A DNA stretch of 54,891 bases, the filler included, from Sphacelaria rigidula (taxonomy: Eukaryota), in assembly GCA_964200075.2 (NCBI GenBank). It is 5 parts of 5 records of this genome, joined end to end, with 100 filler letters (N's around TTAATTAATTAA, not from the genome) between each part and the next. Parts side by side here need not be neighbours in the genome. Positions count along the whole stretch, not along the records: positions 22,000 to 32,897 come from CAXNAA020005717.1; 4 more parts are not named here. One strand, 5' to 3'. Below, one piece after another: positions 10,901-43,994 of the stretch. The translations under genes and the position numbers were made by a program. The notes under the pieces are model-generated. The model was not told the origin of the DNA. It ran no database searches and worked only from the letters and a program-made list of their open reading frames with translations. Every line of letters begins with the position of its first letter. Position 1 is the first letter of the stretch.

Positions 10901-11000
10901 NNNNNNNNNNNNNNNNNNNNNNNNNNNNNNNNNNNNNNNNNNNNTTAATTAATTAANNNNNNNNNNNNNNNNNNNNNNNNNNNNNNNNNNNNNNNNNNNN
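10901..11000. other. Artificial contig spacer (44 N + TTAATTAATTAA + 44 N)
   Basis: Identical spacers occur four times; the linker has stops in all six frames. Confidence 0.98.
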
Positions 11001-21899: not shown

Positions 21900-21999
21900 N
21901 NNNNNNNNNNNNNNNNNNNNNNNNNNNNNNNNNNNNNNNNNNNTTAATTAATTAANNNNNNNNNNNNNNNNNNNNNNNNNNNNNNNNNNNNNNNNNNNN
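21900..21999. other. Artificial contig spacer
   Basis: N44-TTAATTAATTAA-N44. Confidence 0.98.
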
Positions 22000-22068: not shown

Positions 22069-23313
22069 TGATACCGGCCACATCCCCTTCGCTGTCGGAT
22101 AGTCTGAAGCACAGAAAAGTGAGTAGTGCTTCGCGTACTGGCACGGCGGAGCAATTCGTACAGGTGCTTTCAGTACAAAATTGCGTGTTTCCTTCCTGTG
22201 TGACACCACAACAGCATACGACCACGCCGTCGATGGTTCTTGATTGGTATAACGCATATTTCCACCAGTACGCAGAGGTATCGCTCGTGCACGGTACTAA
22301 TCAGCCGCGGCGAACTGCCGCGCCTCCTTGTACGTGCCGGGTCTAGTGTCATGTTGACTTGCCATGATACGCAAGCAATCATGCTGTATAAACCATTGGT
22401 CCGCTGAGTCGAGGGTGGATTACCCATATGCAGTGCATTACCCATGGGGAAAAAATACGGGTAACACAGGCCTAATGAACATGAAATGGCAGAATTCAAC
22501 TCTTTGCCGAGTATTCGTCCCACATTCACTCGAGGGTGGATAATATATAACATATTGTGCACTGCAGGCATCTTGCGCGCATTACAGGTCTGGGAAAAGT
22601 GTGTGTGGTTCAGGCCCCATTACTGCAGATTAATCAACCTTGTTGACTTAGGTAGGTCCCGCATTCATCCGAAGGTGGTGAACATATAGACCGCAAGATG
22701 AGTCTGAGACCGAGACATTCGTCTTTCTGGATCATGCATACTTTTTTCACTTGAAATTAATGCCGATCAGAAGACTAACCTTGCGGTCTGAGGGTTCAGC
22801 ACGCTCACGGAGCTAATGCCTAATTTTCGCACTGGACGCTGGTCGATCCTACAGTTAGCGGAGCAACCTGCGACCAAAACAACACGTGAAGCCACGTCAC
22901 GTCAGCTTCCGCGGAGGTACATTTTAGCTTCCTTTGTAGACTCTGACTCATTGACGAGAGAAAACATCTTTCGAAGCTCTCTGATAATGAGCCTTATCAC
23001 GGTTGTGGAATGTGCTCTTTGAACATACTCCCAACGACTAACCCGTTGTAATATTCGTCCTTTCACCGGCTGGGTTATTACAGTGATAAGGATTCACGCA
23101 GTCACGTTTAAAGTAGACGTTATGCCGATTCCACAAAGGTCTAAGAAGCCCACTCTCAATCCAGTGCTGCATTATCAATCTCGCAAAAACCTTGTCGAGC
23201 GTGAAAGATGTCCCACAGAAAACGTTCCCTGTATTTGTTTTTGTTGCTATCGATTATTTTCACGTTTGCCCGCAATGCCGTCCATCTCTGCACCCCAACA
23301 GGTCTCCTCCGGA

Positions 23314-24300
23314 ATGGCTTTGGTGGATCGTAACCTACTACTCTCCCTGTATGGGTCGACGGGTGGTGCTAAATTCAACTACCGGCGCCGCGTGGTCGAG
23401 TTAAATCTTGGCAACAGCAACCTTCAAGGTATCTTCATTGCCGAATATTGGAACGAGGACCGGGTTCTATCGGTATTTCGAAATATTCAAGGATGTACAC
23501 GTTACACGTTTACGTTTACGTTCACGTTACGTTCATCACGTGAAAATTTTCAGCGTTCCCTTTCGTTACTTGTAACGTAATATGAAACGTTTCGTGTAAC
23601 GTTCGAATGTAAAGTTTCATTAGTGAGTTTGGCGAACAAAAAAAATGGCCGGAAAACCGCGGTGATCAGGTTTTGGAATTGGGATGTAAGGCCAGAATAT
23701 GACGATATGACGTCAAATTGATTTGAAGATTTCCAATTAACACCTGACCTGCTATTATACACCCCCCAAAGCGTCGAGGCCCAACTCGGAATCAGGAAAC
23801 GGAACTAGACACGAGACACACTGCCCCATAACGACCAAGCTTACAGAACACAGTCGTAGGACAAATATCGTGAGTGGGGCGATGGCGGATACTGTGAACG
23901 CCCGTGACGGCGCTGGTGATGGCAGCTCGTTCACGAGGGTTTGAAATCGCGCCTCGCCCAGATGAAAAGCTTTTTGATACCCCTTCAATATCCAATTCCT
24001 GGTCGCCTTGGCCCACACATATTCTACTGAACCGTCGAGCAGGCCCGTTTCCACAATATGTCGACTAAAGTCCTCGTCCGTTGCGTACTCCTCATACGCC
24101 TGTAGAATCAAGCCTATGCCATGGTAATCCCTAGAAGTCCCTACATGAGTCCTGACCCCGGTCATGCTAGCATGAATCGGAAGTCCTATACACCGGGTGC
24201 ATTGTCGGGAAAAGTTGTGAGCCGGTCATGGCCAGTTGAGACCAGGTATCATTTATGGAGTTGAACACATTCTTGCACACTCACACACACGAAAAGAGAG

Positions 24301-24338
<38 letters not shown>

Positions 24339-27300
24339 ACGAGGTGACACGTCCTAATCCCACCTCTTTACCACGCAATGAGGCGTGTGACCCCCAGCAG
24401 ATATATATATATATATATATATATACTATGTATATATATACTGCAACCATCATATCGGGTACACCTCGAATAACAGAACCGTATGACTTCTTTCCTTGTT
24501 GTGCCCACGGCGGAGCGCAAGGCAACTCGTGCTCAAACCGTGTAAAGCTTGCGTCGGGTATGTTGTATGTTGTCGCCTACTTTGGTGGTTCTTGCTGTGT
24601 AGGACCATGTAAGGCGTAGTTCAAAACACCCCCAAGATCGAAGTTTTTCAAAACTAATCAGGCTAGTCGCTGCGGGGACTCTGACCCTGACTCTAACCCC
24701 AACATTAACTCTAATGCAAACCCTAGCCATGAACCCCTTCAAACTTCGTTGCGGTCCCCTGAGTACCGATTCTCCAACCCACTGAAAAACCGTTCCCAAC
24801 ACGCTGGCAACCCCCAGCAAGTTGGAGGAGCTAGCGTGGTACACGATCAACCTCTCGGGTAGGTGAAATGCGGTGCGATTCGCGATTATCCCCCTACAGT
24901 CTGAAAGGGTTTGCCACCCCTCTCTACGTGGGGATTCATCCGTCTTATTCGACAGAAGTGCGACGAGTATGAAGTCGTCGTTCGGTCTCGTGGACGCACC
25001 TGAATTACTCGTCTGCAGGTGGTATCCCTCCTGAGCTAGGGAAACTTGGCGCCCTGCGGGTTCTCCTGTTGTCCCGGAATGAGCTGACTGGTGAGTGCAC
25101 ATGGACAGAGAGTCGAGCACAGATGCCCCGATGTATTCCAGAGCACCTCCAAACCTGTTGTCGTGCTCACGGAGGCGCGTAGGCTACGTCACGTTGGAGA
25201 AACTCTTCGCTCGCGTCGGGTATGTTGTGTATTGATGACAATGTTGGTTGTTTCTCGCTGCGCAGGGCCCGTCCCCAACACGCTGGCAGCTCTCAGCAAG
25301 TTGGAGGAGCTTGACTTGTCCAGGAACAAGCTGTCAGGTGGGTGGAGTGCGGTACGATCCGAGATGATTTGCTGGGAATGTACAAGGGTGTCCCACCGTT
25401 GTTTAGGCGTGGCCTCTCCTGTTTCAATCTGACAGGAGTGCGACGAGTATGAGGTCGTCGTTCGATCTCGTGGACGCACCTGAATTACTCGTCTGCAGGT
25501 GGTATCCCTCCTGAGCTAGGGAAACTTGGCGCCCTGCGAGTTCTTTATTTGTTCGAGAATGAGCTGACTGGTAAGTGCACATGGACAGAGAGTCGAGCAC
25601 AGATGCGCCGATGTATTTCAGAGCACCTCCAAACCTGTTGTCGTGCTCACGGAGGCGCGTAGGCTACGTCACGTTGGAGAAACTCTTCGCTCGCGTCGGG
25701 TATGTTGTGTATTGATGACTATGTTGGTTGTGATTTGGCCCTGCGGCACGTTTCGACCACATGGATTGTGGCGGTGTATGCAAAGGTTGTGATTGCTTGT
25801 GCTCGGCCCCAGGCACTGAGAAACCAATCCGCCCGTAGGGCTGTGTCGCCCACAGCCCATGCGGAGCATAAACGTGTCGGACAAAAGCGGGATCAAGGGG
25901 CCGACAGCACCGCGGGGCAGGAGGGCCTCGCAGAAACCCCTCCTTGGTACGGCAATGCGATCGGTGCACCCCTCACCATACTCCATTATCATGTCACACC
26001 GCTTTGTCCAGTTCGTTTCCACTCCTTTCCAAAGTGTACCAACATCTGACTACCATTGCTGAAGGTGGCCACAACCACCTTCTGACCCACCACACGGCAC
26101 AAAATCGAATGGCCGAAGAACGTGTTGAACGGTTGATTTCACCTCTGAGTATTATCAATGTTGAGTGGTCCCGCACGTTGCTAGTTTTCCACGCATCTTC
26201 ACATCCAAGGTGTCACTCGTTGGAATTCCGGGGCGTATGCTGCTCGTAAAAGGGTGTCGGTGTACCCACCTTTCGTGCATCGCGCGTACTATTCCTCCCT
26301 CACTGTCGGTATCAATACGCAGCAAACTTGGCCGTGAACCTGGCTCTGTCATGGCCGAGCATGTGACAACCTGCCATGCTCTGATTGCGGGTGTGATTGA
26401 GATGCTAACATACTGTTGTAGGCGGACGGGTCCTTTGGGTTGTGCTAGTTCGTGGTGTCGCGTCGGCGACCTCAAGCGCCATGTTTTCAAAGTTCGTGAG
26501 GGAGGCAGTTCAATGTAGTCTCGTGTCGACGGAAAATTGCAGTCAACGTTGTCGTATACTTTCCGGCACGTCCGAAACGCGTGTGTCCGCTGGACTTGTG
26601 TTATTTTTTTAACGTGGCGACGAAACTTTTCTATTCCCTTCATAGGGGGACCTCGGGAAAATGAGACGCTTTCGGCGTGGAAAACCCGGATGCAGGCGGA
26701 ACTTGTCGAGAAAAAGCACGCAAGATTGCAGGGTCAACGGGCGAAGGAGACATCTGCCGCTCTCACCGGACGCTTAACCTCGTCGGCGAGAGGACACGCC
26801 GAGCAATTACTCGAAGTGCAGGTCGCGTCCTTTGCAGAGTTGGATGAGCTCACTAGAGAGAATCACGCAACCCTGGAGGAAGTTAAAATTCTCCTCCGAG
26901 AACCTGCCGGCGGTAACTTTCTTCCTGACGATGTGCTCACGGATGCAGAGAAGCTGCAGGAGCTCGACAGGCTGGTAGCAATGGCAAAGGCTCTAGGCGA
27001 GGTGGCGGTGAGCGCTACAAAGTAGATATTTGTTGGCATACAGCAGCAATGGGGAAAAGCCCATCTGACGTTGTATGGCTTGATGACGGATTGCGTATGA
27101 CGTCATCTTGCTTTGTGGCTTTCGGCTTTGGCCTCACGCAATGTGCCTAGTATATCCAGGGCTGTTATGACTTGACGCTGGTCGTGCAAATGCTGTCCGA
27201 GTGCGAGTGCGCAGTCGAGACACACCGAAGAGGAGGACACACGATGGAAGATGATGGCCTTGGACCCGGGTTCCAAGGCATACTACACCGCCGTCAGGCG

Positions 27301-30300
27301 CGGCTTATGTAACGCTTACCTCGCTGCCAGCGTCGTTGACAGTGGCCTTGTGTCCACGAGCGAAATCGGTGTCATGGGCAAGGTGGGCAACGTGGGTAGG
27401 TTTGAGCCTGCAAGAGGTGTGTTGACCACAATGAGCCGCCACAGTTGAACTTCGGCGCGGGAAACAGTTGATGCACCTTTCTCGCGATATTGATGTAAAC
27501 AAAAAGAGATTGTTTTCCGCCATACAAGGCGTCCAGAGTTACACGAGGGGGTGAACAAGAAATAAGAAAGTTATATGTTTTTTGTACCGTGCCCATTGTG
27601 CCTGCGTGCCAATCAAAGAACAATACGTTTTTTTCCTTTTTGCAGGCAGGGACGGCCTTGAAACTGATTTCTAGCGCAGTGCCCGTGATCGGCGGACTAG
27701 CCAGCTTGGCGGGTGCAGCGTTGAAGGTTGGAGACTGCTACCTCCAAACTCAACGAGTGGTGAAGGTGATTATGTTCTCATGCATATGGTGCATCGGATG
27801 GATTTCAACGTACTGCTTGTATGCCCAGCCTGCGATGGTGTTGATGGGTCATTGCGCGAGCCCACTCGTTTTTTCATATTCGGCAGATCACCGATTTGGC
27901 ACCGGATGCGGTTGAGTGTTCTAAGCTGACGAAGATGCTAGCACTACGACTCACCGACGCTCTCGTAGACATCACCGTCGCCACGTCGCACGGCTGGCGG
28001 GAAGGTGAGGACAATATTTGGAAATGAGCTCGGGTTCAAGCGCCCGTCTTTCCCTGACCAAACAGCACCTTTCCGCATTGCTGCCTGGGTATTATCAGGC
28101 CAAAGTCGCTGATTTTTACCAAAATACGGGACCTCCCTTGTTGAGATCAGGGGGGGAAACATGTGTGATACATATCACACATGGCGTGTACCCGCAGAGG
28201 CCGTGGTAATTCGACCACATCCTGCAGAGGTGAAGCTGCACAGCACGGTGGGCTTCACATTCCTCCGTGCTGTGCTCCTGCACAGCACCATGGGGGTAAT
28301 GTGTAGGTTTTGGGTAATGCGAGGGCGTTCTCGTGCTTGCAATGCACATTTGCAACATGTGCACGGAAAGGGGACGGACCTTGCTTTCCTCTGCCATGTG
28401 AGCTTGTGCAAGCGAATCGATCCGGCAGGGGTTCTGTCGTGAGGTGTCAGGTACCGAGCATGGACCGTGTGTTGCATCTCTCGTGTTTCAGGCGGCTTCG
28501 AATCAAGTGAGGGTTATGGCACCTTACCAGACGGTGCGAGCGAGGAAGCCGTCATGGAATGGTTCATCGAAAACGTCGTGAACTGCGTGTCTAGCAAGTG
28601 CGGAACAACGTCTGGGACCCATGAGGAGCAGGTGAGTGAGTCATACGTGGTAGGACCTCGGCGCTGCGACCTTGTTTGATCCGGAACACGAATATTCGGG
28701 TACGATAGCCATACTTGCTCGACGTCGTTCATGTGCGCCCCCATGTCTCTTCAGGCTCGGAGGCGGCTCGGCAAACGACACCTTCACACGCTTTTGGAAG
28801 CGGTGGGTCGAGATTGCCTTCAGGGTATAAACAGCATCGAAGGAAAGGTAAAATACGGATGCGTCTGAAAACCACGGGCGTTGTTTATTTTTCCGTTCAC
28901 CAAGCCGCCGTATTTTTCATAGGCTTCGGACAGCGTCACTACTGACATTTTGATCGGGGCCAACAACGCTGACACCCCTCTCCGTGTAGGCGACACCCTT
29001 GCCAACTGAGCACAGAGACCACACGGTGACGGGAGAGCGGTGTATGCAAGGGACCATTAGGCGAAAAGGTTTCCGTTATTCCACTCGTTTCCTCGAACAC
29101 ATGCTGTGGTTCATACGACGATGTAGGTCGAACGGCTGGTGAAAGTGGTAATTCCCGAGGCCGGCACGAGTCCCACCGCGACCTCGAGTGCGCCCGAGAG
29201 GTCGTCGGTGCGATTTCCTGTATCAGCGTCACCCCACGACGGCATCTTGGATCGGGAAGTGGATTTTTCTGCCATGAAGGCAGAGCTGGAAGCATTGAAG
29301 CTCGCGGACGAGAGCCTGCAAAGAGAATTTGAAGCGTTGAAGTCCGAGAAACAGAAGCTGCAGAGTAGGGTGAGTGGAACCAGTCATTGCCGTAAAGACC
29401 CAGGACGTCTTGCGTGCTTGATGCGGCGCCTCTCGCCAGTGATACCTAAGCAGCTTTCGACACGACGAGTCTGGTGACTTGAAAGTATAGCCAACTCTGT
29501 ATATAATTCATGTTGACGTGGCTCTCTTATTTCCTTCTGTTCCCTCCGCCTAGGTGGTCGCCATGGAGAAACGTATCTCAAAGCCTCAGGCGGAGTCGGG
29601 CGATTCGGTGGATGCTGGTGAGTATAGCTGCTGTTTCACGACCACCATCCATCACGAGAATCCATGTGAATGTAGGAGAGTGGTCGCCGAAAGTTCCATC
29701 TTCCCCCTCGTAGTACTGTCTTGTGGACTCCTGTATCCTCGCTCGGTTTCCTTTCCAACGGTTCGTAGGATTTGTATTTTCTAGGGTGTGCACTGTGTAC
29801 CGTGCAAGCCAGACATTTTCGTTTCCTCCCTCCGTGCTCTATAGACGCATCGAGATACTCGTCTCTACGCTCGCCCCACTTACTCCCTTTGTCGCCCTTT
29901 CGCTCTAATCGACAACCACTATTCGAAGGAGGAGGGCAGCTCCTCGCTCAGAAGCAGAAGACCAAGACCAAGACCATGGAGGAGTTCAATCAGGAGATGG
30001 AGAACCCAGGTTTGATACAGAGGGACATTGGCAAACTCACTTGGGCTTAGTACGCTGTCTCGGAGAAAATATCACCAAGGCCACCGAAGGCACGAACTGA
30101 TCCGGCACTCAACCTCATTAATTCTCAGTACGAACAACTTGTCGAGGAGGATTCGTGATGGGTGCCAGCGCGAAGTGACTGCACTTGATAGCGTTGTCCT
30201 CGTGACAGGGGGATTCGGCTTAAATTAGTGACCAATGGTGGATTGAGGGAGTTTATCCCAAGAGGCGCCCTGGGTTGCTCGCGACCATCCCTTCGTCGCG

Positions 30301-30762
30301 ACGATATTTCATGCCCGGCGTCCTCACGAAACAGGCTTGAGTGACTTCCCGTGGCAGTACTCGTACATGCAGTTGTTTCCACGCTTATTCTCTTTTGTGT
30401 CGTGTCGCTCACACGACTCTTTCTTCCGTTGCCTTTTCCGACCGAAAACTTGCAGATCTTGCTACAGACCGGCAAACTGACAACCCCGACGAACCTTGGG
30501 TCACCCTGGCTGATCGAGAAATGGTGGAGGGAGAGATGAAATATCTGGACGAACGAGTTTCTGCACTTGAAAAAGAAAACCGAGGTAAGCTGAGCCCTGC
30601 CATTGCACTTTTGGAATATGTGCTCTCAGTATTGTCCATCATGAAGGCTACGCACAGACACGTTAGGTACGAAGAGTGTTCAGTCATGTGCCTTTTCCGC
30701 TTGAACTCGTGCCGTTTGCAGGTAAGAAGGGATTTCTGTCACGCTGGCGCCGCCATCGCTGA
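23314..30762 (+). CDS. Leucine-rich-repeat protein (brown-algal one-LRR-per-exon type) with uncharacterised helical/coiled-coil C-terminal region, ~629 aa
   Basis: GT-AG exons 23314-23428, 25019-25090, 25266-25337, 25499-25570, 26646-27007, 27215-27382, 27646-27765, 27887-28004, 28492-28631, 28755-28847, 29127-29369, 29554-29617, 29929-30009, 30456-30584, 30722-30762 are phase-compatible and sum to 1890 nt. N-cap MALVDRNLLLSLYGSTGG...RVVELNLGNSNLQG; plant-type LRRs GGIPPELGKLGALRVLLLSRNELT, GPVPNTLAALSKLEELDLSRNKLS, GGIPPELGKLGALRVLYLFENELT; ends GKKGFLSRWRRHR*. Confidence 0.85.
24285..24440. repeat. (CA)n and (TA)n microsatellites in intron 1
   Basis: Directly visible at ~24302-24335 and ~24401-24440. 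Confidence 0.9.
24787..24858 (+). pseudogene. Disabled 72-nt LRR exon (splice acceptor lost)
   Basis: VPNTLATPSKLEELAWYTINLS aligns with exon 25266-25337 at offset 479; the GT donor is retained but AA replaces AG upstream and LRR consensus residues have decayed. Confidence 0.75.
24790..25731 (+). repeat. Tandem duplication with a ~480-bp unit carrying two LRR exons and two introns
   Basis: 24961-25251 and 25441-25731 are near-identical at offset 480. Confidence 0.95.
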
Positions 30763-31337: not shown

Positions 31338-31520
31338 GGGGGGAGGGGGGGGGGGGGGGGGGGGGGGGGGACCGCAGGAAAAAGGGGAGGAAAAAAAGAA
31401 AAAGCGCCGGCGGAAAGGCGGGGTGTCTCTCCTGTTNNNNNNNNNNGGAGAGGTGTGGTTATGATGTGGGTGGGGGGGGTGGGGGGGGGTGGAGGGGGGT
31501 GGGGTGTGGTGGGGGGGGGT
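31338..31520. repeat. G-rich low-complexity tract with a small internal N gap
   Basis: Poly-G runs; sequence quality probably poor. Confidence 0.8.
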
Positions 31521-32897: not shown

Positions 32898-32997
32898 NNN
32901 NNNNNNNNNNNNNNNNNNNNNNNNNNNNNNNNNNNNNNNNNTTAATTAATTAANNNNNNNNNNNNNNNNNNNNNNNNNNNNNNNNNNNNNNNNNNNN
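32898..32997. other. Artificial contig spacer
   Basis: N44-TTAATTAATTAA-N44. Confidence 0.98.
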
Positions 32998-42363: not shown

Positions 42364-43894
42364 CGTGAAACTGATTTGATACCTCGGACACAGAACATAA
42401 GCGTCGTACGCTGCAGAACTGTTATTTACCGCCCAGCTGGTGTGTCAGCGTCTTGTTCGGTCCTCCTGCCTTGCCAGTAAGGCGTGTTTACCATACACCC
42501 GGCGTAACCCCGTTACATGCAGATCGCAAAGGTCGTACGGCTGATCGTCGGGCGGGCTTGCTGTATCCACCCGTGCTTTATTACCGCTGGTAATGCATAT
42601 GCCAATGACTTTTCCTTGGAATTGTTTGTTAGATCCTGGCCGAACAGCGTCATGATGTATCAATTGAGCATAGAGCAATAGTTACCCTTCCTTGCCAGCC
42701 GCACATGAGCGCGCACCCTAAACGAGAAATGATGAAAACAGCCGTAAAGAAGCGAAGTCATTGGGCATCAACTTCATGTCCCACCCATGTGCCCTGGTTG
42801 CTGCAGTCGAGCTACGGTATTGTTAACACGTATCATGTACTAGGCTCATACAGGTTCGCAGATAATGAACACTACTGTTCCTCCTATACTGGAGTCGAAT
42901 CTCACGGGTGCGGAAAATTGCTTCTCAGATGTATACCGGATTCTAATTCCACAAAAAAGTGATACCATTATCGATAGCACCGCGACTAGTTTAGGCGCCG
43001 TGCTCGTCCGTTGAGGATTCCTTTTTTTGAACGGNNNNNNNNNNGGTGTAATTCGTGCGCAAAAGACATGGTACGGGCACATTGCATCTTAACTCCCACC
43101 GGCAGAGTACTGTTATTTTTTATTTTCAGTGCCTACGTCACATTAGCTCGATTCCTTGAATACTCTAGTTCGATTCCTCCGAACCGTGGTCACGGGGTGC
43201 AAGGAGCATACCACTCATAACCATAAAACCAAGAGTTGACAGAGGGAGTCTTTACACAAAAGCGATATACAAAAAGAACGAGCCCACAAAAACCGATCGA
43301 ACTGCAACACGCTGCAAACTGGAAAATTGCCGGCGTGTGATCTAGATGACCAACTTGCCACCTACTGCTGTATACCTGTAGTAACAGGAAACGCGTGAAT
43401 CGAAATGCCACAGGGAATAATAACCAACCCCGAATAGACCTAGTAATGTTGGAAACGATCCCAGGTTCAAGGAAGTGAGGAAATGGCTGCATCACCGAGG
43501 CATCAATTGTAACATCAACTAACCTGACTCAACATCAGTATCAAGCGACTTGATCGCCCTGTTACTACTTCAGTTCAACTTCCCTGAGCTAATCCGAGTT
43601 CGAGAAACTTGATCTTCCCGCCCTAAAATCAGATAATTCGTCATGTGTCAACTAGCTCCATGTAGAACTCAGGACACGCTTCCTCCCCCCCCCCCCCCTC
43701 TTGGACCCCAAAAGTGTCAGGAAAAAAAAAAAGAGTAGGCACGGTTGGTGGAAATTGATTTTACCACGTTTCTGTACGAGCAAAGAATTATGAAGCTCGG
43801 GCACAGAAGACGACACAACGCCGGGAGAAACGGAGCCCAAAATGAGAAGAAACGAAGCCGCTAAGCAGTCACAGATGCTGCCGAAAGCTGACGT

Positions 43895-43994
43895 NNNNNN
43901 NNNNNNNNNNNNNNNNNNNNNNNNNNNNNNNNNNNNNNTTAATTAATTAANNNNNNNNNNNNNNNNNNNNNNNNNNNNNNNNNNNNNNNNNNNN
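43895..43994. other. Artificial contig spacer
   Basis: N44-TTAATTAATTAA-N44. Confidence 0.98.

Follow-up and report, generated by a model that had tools for sequence, protein, structure and literature searches.

The closest described relatives of the locus analyzed here are the leucine-rich repeat (LRR) genes of Ectocarpus, where Zambounis et al. 2012 (PMC3341825) defined the type I LRR exon, 72 nt in length and with the consensus GxxPxxLxxxxxLxxLxLxxNxLx. According to that report the type I loci carry inactivated LRR exons in their introns and show intra- and intergenic recombination and exon shuffling, and the exons are under positive selection at positions 15, 17, and 19, and with lower support at position 20. 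Type I exons were also reported in 46 of the 164 Ectocarpus LRR loci that are neither ROCO nor kinase genes, and somatic recombination was put forward as a hypothesis (PMC3341825). Teng et al. 2024 (PMC11378527) reported the same four sites, numbered 14, 16, 18, and 19 in a 23-residue numbering, for the ROCO genes of four brown algae, in which alternative splicing of the symmetric 72-bp exons gives variants with different LRR content. Exons that hold a single LRR, their shuffling, and the hypervariability of concave-face positions have been described before, in Ectocarpus and in four further brown algae. Here we describe a short array of type I cassettes in an LRR gene of Sphacelaria rigidula (assembly GCA_964200075.2, record CAXNAA020005717.1), located within a window of 54,891 nt, by which we mean the whole stretch of DNA that was analyzed. 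What is new at this locus is that the excess divergence of a short patch in one duplicated exon reflects a genealogical mosaic, in which the patch is old and the multi-copy backbone around it young, and not a signal in the ratio of nonsynonymous to synonymous rates (dN/dS).

The array is built from two exon types, A and B. Its three live LRR exons (exon B copy 1, exon A, and exon B copy 2; Table 1) are each 72 nt long and encode one 24-residue LRR, as checked at the borders by a script. Their borders are cag upstream and gt(g/a)agt or gtgggt downstream, and intron phase is 1 throughout, the exons opening with two bases of a Gly codon and closing with one base of the next. Residues G1, P4, L7, L13, L16, L18, N21, and L23 of the type I register are present in all three. 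A six-frame motif scan of the window returned these three exons as the only canonical repeats, and none of its three motif hits lies on the minus strand. The initial annotation had listed four 72-nt phase-1 LRR exons, of which three stand; the fourth, at 24787-24858, is a pseudo-exon that has kept its donor (gtaggt) but lacks an AG acceptor (...cactgaa/ctgaa before it), has a TGA at 24783-85, and carries W and I in place of the structural L18 and N21, with P4, L7, L13, L16, and L23 retained.

When 24951-25250 is compared with 25431-25730, 15 of 300 positions differ. Eight of these differences fall in exon B, all within codons 14-20, and the remaining 51 nt of full codons are identical; of the intron differences, four are in the 160 nt downstream of the exon and three in the 68 nt upstream. 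Our recount of exon and downstream intron agrees with the numbers first given. The contrast between exon (8/72) and intron (7/228) has a Fisher p of 0.011, and in 200,000 permutations at least eight differences fell together within 18, 21, or 24 nt in 3, 13, and 31 cases, respectively. The amino acid changes in the patch are L17Y, S19F, and R20E, accompanied by synonymous changes at R14 and L16, and the three replaced residues are three of the four published positively selected sites 15, 17, 19, and 20 (PMC3341825, PMC11378527). Entropy over 96 unique type-I-like repeats, taken from 14 of the 19 homologues of the gene that were scanned (the other five had no regex match), likewise ranks positions 17, 15, 19, and 20 as the top four.

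Diversifying selection had been proposed for this clustering, but the rates in the exon pair do not bear it out. By the Nei-Gojobori method the whole exon has 2.75 synonymous differences (Sd) on 20.33 sites and 5.25 nonsynonymous differences (Nd) on 48.67 sites, giving an omega of 0.78. For codons 14-20 alone the values are Sd 2.75 on 6.33 sites (proportion pS 0.434) and Nd 5.25 on 14.67 sites (pN 0.358), with an omega of 0.75, so that synonymous sites are equally diverged. The patch differs at 8/18 positions, and its pS of 0.434 matches the 0.385 of the old intron described below. Its two synonymous changes compare with 0.19 expected at the rate of the young block (Poisson P(>=2) = 0.017), and two codons have changed at several bases on a background of 2.5% (ctg>tat at 3 nt and cgg>gag at 2 nt). 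Since pS in the patch is as high as pN and equal to the divergence of the old intron, the patch appears to have a different genealogy and not a faster rate of amino acid substitution.

A repeat search found one pair of 300 nt with 95% identity at a spacing of 480 and one of 100 nt with 79% identity at a spacing of 479, and Tandem Repeats Finder called no array at 24787-25731. The periodicity of the two-exon 480-bp unit described initially is thus real, but the unit is not uniform, as a 300-nt block is 95% identical and the rest about 38% diverged. In gapped alignment the two units differ at 7/46 positions in residues 1-15 of exon A (fraction 0.152), at 10/26 in residues 16-24 (0.385), and at 35/91 in intron A (0.385), while from 24951 on, outside the patch, only 7/282 positions differ (0.025). 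The young block has a sharp 5' edge at 24951, and its 3' edge at 25250/25730 is the end of homology. Divergence of 0.385 against 0.025 by segment shows an old tandem duplication that carries a young block, and the abrupt switch from 38% to 2.5% at 24951 means that recombination has shaped the block in any case. When both units were searched against the window with blastn they found each other, a 40-nt intron-B-like remnant at 24547-24586, one 21-nt match (E 0.021), and nothing else; the patch sequences, searched in the window with up to three mismatches, gave self-matches only, the copy-2 patch occurring once.

Table 1 Features of the cassette locus and of the gene that contains it, in positions of the window.
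Feature	Positions	Strand	Content and basis
Exon 1	23314..23428	+	Start codon, shortened LRR N-terminal cap and first LRR, MALVDRNLLLSLYGSTGGAKFNYRRRVVELNLGNSNLQ (MALVDRNLLLSLYGSTGGAKF..NYRRRVVELNLGNSNLQ); donor caag/gtatct, phase 1; predicted from sequence, borders, and phase
Pseudo-exon, inactivated type I LRR	24787..24858	+	72 nt, in frame, inside intron 1; TVPNTLATPSKLEELAWYTINLS
Cassette block, 780 nt	24951..25730	+	Intron A 3' end, exon B, intron B, exon A, intron A, exon B, intron B 5' part
LRR exon 2 (exon B copy 1)	25019..25090	+	Type I; (G)GIPPELGKLGALRVLLLSRNELT; borders and phase, predicted inclusion in mRNA
Variable patch copy 1	25059..25076	+	cgG gtt ctC CTG ttg tCc CGg = R V L L L S R
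LRR exon 3 (exon A)	25266..25337	+	Type I; (G)PVPNTLAALSKLEELDLSRNKLS; borders and phase
LRR exon 4 (exon B copy 2)	25499..25570	+	Type I, final LRR; (G)GIPPELGKLGALRVLYLFENELT; X1 and X6 contigs
Variable patch copy 2	25539..25556	+	cgA gtt ctT TAT ttg tTc GAg = R V L Y L F E
Exon 5	26646..27007	+	Linker and start of conserved C-terminal region; (G)GPRENETLSAWKTRMQAELVEKK...; X6 joint, phase fits
Remaining C-terminal exons	27215..30759	+	Helical domain without Pfam family, Gly-rich hydrophobic helix, then coiled coils

Read evidence was taken from the Logan contigs of four coded runs (X1, X3, X4, and X6) as summed contig depth per bin; such contigs drop rare variants and low-depth branches. 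X1 has a depth of 64-72 in each flank, of 171 in the bin 24942-25075, and of 452-811 over 25076-25745. The corresponding values are 87-483 in most block bins (21 and 0 in the last two) against about 10-16 in the flanks for X3, and 204-526 in the block (8.6 in one bin) against about 28-32 for X4. From this contrast we place 24951-25730 in a family of about 7-12 copies with at least 95% identity, while the pseudo-exon lies in single-copy DNA (X1 depth 72). Multi-copy contigs over 24986-25384 (X3, nine differences) and 25222-25538 (X1, seven differences) further show that B-A-B cassette arrays exist elsewhere in the genome. The pseudo-exon in intron 1, the block at 7-12 times the single-copy depth, and these paralogous B-A-B contigs are the signs of exon shuffling at this locus.

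The uneven spread of substitutions holds in this larger sample, as the paralogous contigs again differ from the window mainly in codons 15-20. In the X3 contig 7/9 differences lie in these codons of the two exons, and exon (7/144) and intron (2/255) differ with p = 0.013. Its exon B has S19F and R20E, and its exon A has E15K, R20L (one 2-nt change, agg>ttg), and a synonymous change at L16, so exon 3 and its paralogue differ in amino acids at positions 15 and 20. Intermediate patch haplotypes were seen in two runs, LLLFE in X3 (multi-copy) and ..LFR in X4 (depth 37, about single-copy, another strain); at 25072-25077 the former reads ttc gag and the latter ttc cgg, and X1 gives no cover.

On balance we consider it somewhat probable that 24951-25730 was homogenized or imported by ectopic recombination into an older 480-bp tandem duplication, leaving the patch as an old island, with selection as a plausible filter. 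The starting state would be an old, strongly diverged tandem duplication of 480 bp. Ectopic gene conversion or exon shuffling within the multi-copy pool of type I cassettes would then have homogenized the exon framework and the flanking intron, and the 18-nt patch, which encodes the solvent-exposed xxLxLxx strand, would either have stayed unconverted or have been replaced by a short tract from another cassette. If the protein acts as a receptor, the mosaics that persist could plausibly be those favoured by selection for different residues at the ligand-facing positions 15, 17, 19, and 20. That the patch is old while its multi-copy backbone is young suggests gene conversion as the mechanism underlying “exon shuffling”, and we count the intra- and intergenic recombination of the Ectocarpus type I loci (PMC3341825) in its favour. 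The term “gene conversion” occurs 0 times in the texts of PMC3341825 and PMC11378527 as available, and the text of the former, its supplementary tables aside, does not discuss the contrast between intron and patch. Among the papers returned by a literature search on brown alga, LRR, gene conversion, and exon, none is on the subject.

Several points weigh against gene conversion. No donor with the copy-2 patch on another backbone is present within the window, and neither the exact copy-1 patch (tcc cgg) nor the copy-1 A at 25240 occurs in any contig of the four runs. The boundaries of the patch were set after seeing the data. Taken alone, the X1 contig gives 4/112 differences in exon against 3/205 in intron (p = 0.25), and it is not independent of the X3 contig because the exon-3 differences are common to both. 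The four patch haplotypes can be arranged as a stepwise series and do not violate the four-gamete condition, so they could also have arisen by recurrent point mutation under selection, and with a shortened cap exon and one dead exon part of the pattern may be neutral decay.

Recurrent mutation is the core of the alternative that survives best, in situ diversifying selection, in which the 300-nt cassette was duplicated recently and point mutations in the ligand-facing codons then became fixed rapidly. Such a history would fit the position of all three amino acid changes at published positively selected sites (PMC3341825, PMC11378527) and the variability of the same positions among the 96 family repeats, and the haplotypes of the window and of X3 and X4 can be placed in the stepwise order LLLSR, LLLFR, LLLFE, and LYLFE. 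The omega values of 0.75-0.78 are however not above 1, the patch holds two synonymous changes where the other 51 nt of the exon hold none, 3-nt and 2-nt codon changes stand on a 2.5% background, and the sharp step at 24951 reveals recombination, all of which makes this alternative unlikely.

Alternatively, the interior of copy 1 (25006-25250) might be a consensus contaminated by a paralogue, or the two units might be collapsed or expanded alleles, and the 8-versus-4 contrast between exon and intron would then be unreliable. The block is multi-copy and difficult to assemble, no contig among the four runs spans both exon-B copies, and the tcc cgg at 25072-25077 and the A at 25240 lack a matching contig; the 5' part of the copy-1 patch is matched by the multi-copy X3 contig, and its last two codons by none. 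Contigs are, on the other hand, known to lose low-depth branches, and an X4 contig at the single-copy depth of 37 has a copy-1-like patch with one change. Contigs with 0 differences link unique upstream DNA to the copy-1-specific positions 24956, 24973, and 24985 (X1 24442-25005 and X3 24442-25015), and copy 2 is linked to unique downstream DNA by X1 and X4 contigs (25702-26120/26122). Exon 4 is covered by X1 and X6 contigs with 0 differences, the X1 contig over 25515-25578 having a single-copy depth of 53.6, and RNA-like contigs join exon 3 to the start of an exon-B sequence and exon 4 to exon 5. A mis-assembly of alleles, named at the outset as an explanation that would undo the contrast, is on this evidence improbable: both copies are tied to unique flanks, although no contig bridges them and the exact copy-1 patch is unseen, and the tandem arrangement of the two units is likely.

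We also give little credence to the idea that the LRR part is a decaying leader released from selection, with patch differences that are neutral relics without functional meaning. Three observations could be read in this way besides the dead LRR exon. Compared with the N-termini of the homologues, the cap exon at 23314-23428 has a gap of about 20 residues at W..NW.TDA.L..W.GV.VN, a segment present in all aligned LRR-bearing homologues, which reads as an in-frame deletion or a decayed cap (a second possible ATG lies upstream at 23275). Intron 1 is full of very high-copy repeats at 23468-23601, 23736-23869, and 24138-24271, with summed X1 depths of 35,134, 7,605, and 9,925 (single-copy DNA has about 66); the first repeat has a short period, is rich in ACGT, and shows many rearranged joints in the contigs. 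The public protein model, finally, starts downstream at 26690. Against decay, three LRR exons have all eight consensus residues with splice sites and phase intact, the joined exons are open from 23314 through 27007, and the exon 4 to exon 5 splice has about 10 times the depth of the unspliced form.

Programmed or targeted diversification, somatic or germline, in the manner of cassette copying in variable lymphocyte receptors (VLR) or of hypermutation, is very improbable, since apart from the sharp bounds of the 18-nt patch, which give the pattern its shape, the somatic recombination hypothesis for Ectocarpus (PMC3341825), and the 5/8 patch changes that are C>T or G>A, nothing in the data speaks for it, the copy-2 patch is identical in the X1 and X6 contigs (0 differences), where rare somatic variants would in any case be dropped, a deaminase-like bias was rejected on the similar spectrum of the seven background differences, and no enzyme or signal sequence was found, none being sought.

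The gene that carries the array is an expressed non-ROCO brown algal LRR gene and belongs with the “other” LRR loci that have type I exons. A contig of X6, a run that we take to be RNA by guess (as for X7-X9, none of the four being recorded as RNA), joins 25570 to 26646 with GT..AG borders at a depth of 92.4, against 9.4 for the unspliced contig, and its 21 letters on the left side include the copy-2 ttc gag. Loose ends in X6 lead from the 3' end of exon 3 to the start of an exon-B sequence and from 27007 to a next exon. The joints 23428 to 25019 and 25090 to 25266 are absent among the contig joints of the four runs, and splicing of the 5' LRR part is thus predicted; X6 gives no cover over 24004-24941, which includes the pseudo-exon, nor over the copy-1 patch, and has no bearing on expression there. 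Exon 5 opens at 26646 with the linker GGPRENETLSAW, of the GGP..NESL.AW type.

Downstream of the LRR exons lies P0001 (510 residues, labelled “unnamed protein product [Sphacelaria rigidula]”), whose residues 1-106 are 100% identical to the translation of 26690-27007 and whose further tblastn high-scoring segment pairs (HSPs) are at 27215-27391, 27643-27768, 27884-28006, 28443-28853, 29127-29372, 29554-29619, 29928-30014, 30455-30589, and 30721-30759. This public model begins at the Met at 26690 and leaves out the cap and LRR exons, although the RNA-like contig splices 25570 to 26646, which means that the LRR content is under-annotated; LRR receptor counts in such genomes may therefore be too low. 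The window gene is 36-69% identical to P0002 per HSP. In homologues from Pylaiella, Ectocarpus species, and Nemacystus, a cap is followed by LRRs (between about 3 and more than 20), by the motif GGP..(N/G)ESL.(A/L)W, and by the same C-terminal region. The family (P0001-P0010 and P0131-P0143) is recognized by an LRRNT-type cap, type I LRRs, the linker, and an AYYxxxRxGLxxAYLAASV core, and the window gene has them all.

The organization and shuffling known from Ectocarpus had been assigned to ROCO-type candidate receptors; the type I exon agrees with that description (PMC3341825), the ROCO identity does not. The last LRR exon splices to 26646, no Pfam family, Roc and COR included, exceeds its curated cut-off in the downstream P0001, and the homologues share the non-ROCO C-terminus, so that a ROCO reading was rejected. 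No protein kinase domain of Pfam was found in P0001, P0002, P0004, P0008, or P0003.

The C-terminal region has 230 cluster representatives at E <= 0.001. Its core (about residues 100-230 of P0001, including the Gly-rich hydrophobic helix) also follows NACHT and HEAT domains (P0228), TPR (P0254, P0243), and ankyrin repeats (P0253, P0278), these five being unnamed metagenome or Logan proteins. As a lead, these architectures suggest that the core may be a shared signalling or effector module. An AlphaFold2 model of the region is all-helical with a predicted local confidence (pLDDT) of 69 and a predicted TM-score (pTM) of 0.51. No credible match was found in the ESM Atlas, whose own model has a pLDDT of 0.39, and Foldseek against the PDB gave 0 matches for the C-terminal model at E <= 0.001. 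A wide VIA-align search returned coiled-coil or helical-hairpin rows only, with Z <= 8.5, within the expectation for helical models.

Searches with the cassette itself were less informative. The open reading frame 25088-25432 gave 20 candidates in a near-homologue protein search, with 0 at E <= 0.01, and a degenerate cassette pattern had 0 matches in metagenome contigs. Exon B with in-frame intron read-through (54 residues) gave 299 matches, mostly to long proteins and uninformative on paralogues. In this search the 24-residue plant-type LRR of the alga (LxxLxLxxNxLxGxIPxxLGxL) reached up to 72% local identity to very long multi-repeat proteins, and the few matches with a named source were bacterial (Gemmatimonadota, Chloroflexota, and similar) plus one fern.

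A few further observations concern the surroundings of the array. The 44 nt at 24547-24590, which match the 3' end of intron B (25209-25252) with 77% identity and precede an acceptor-like site (...tgtgtag), may be what is left of a third cassette unit of greater age. Two microsatellites lie directly upstream of this remnant, (AC)n at 24302-24336 and (AT)n at 24401-24440. The N stretches at 10901-11000, 21900-21999, 32898-32997, and 43895-43994 (44 N, 12 bases, and 44 N, about every 11 kb) and the 10-N runs at 31437-31446 and 43035-43044 appear to be masking or assembly gaps without biological meaning.

A more far-reaching and rather unlikely extension of gene conversion is that type I cassettes would consist of a framework and a complementarity-determining patch. 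Frequent ectopic conversion within a multi-copy reservoir would hold the exon framework and the flanking introns nearly the same between loci, and tracts below 30 nt would shuffle old alleles of the six ligand-facing codons from cassette to cassette, possibly in a directed and even somatic manner; the sensor would be coupled to the undescribed helical C-terminal module as a candidate immune effector domain. Occurring as it does behind other sensor-type repeat arrays, the C-terminal domain is worth attention as a signalling or effector module.

In the MHC genes of vertebrates, for which micro-conversion has also been described, introns are homogenized and contact codons stay diverse. These genes and the cassette assembly of lamprey VLR (the latter as covered in PMC3341825) resemble our locus, in pattern only, in having a conserved LRR or framework backbone with short, templated, and clustered multi-nucleotide changes at ligand-contact residues. 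The Sphacelaria locus, by comparison, shows no sign of deaminases, of assembly in somatic cells, or of a germline gene with donor cassettes on its flanks.

Outside the brown algae, Xiong et al. 2019 (PMC6564038) described LRR exon arrays in Tetrahymena, in which 90-bp exons that do not correspond to one repeat are separated by phase-2 introns, are associated with a retrotransposon, and occur in thousands of genes. Shared with our locus are the tandem intron-exon units, the fixed exon length, the single intron phase, and recent clonal expansions by unequal crossing-over or ectopic recombination; the lineage is unrelated, and exon length and phase differ.

Within the brown algae, the study of Teng et al. 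(PMC11378527) covers ROCO genes only, and “Sphacelaria” occurs 0 times in its text as available. In comparison with the Ectocarpus type I arrays, the window gene comes from another species, has no Roc-COR and a C-terminus without a Pfam family, has three live LRR exons only, and has no LRR exon on the opposite strand in the window. It shares with them the 72-nt one-LRR exons and their consensus, the dead exons in introns, the hypervariable positions 15, 17, 19, and 20, and the LRRNT-type cap, and it thereby extends type I cassettes to a species of the Sphacelariales and to a non-ROCO gene family.

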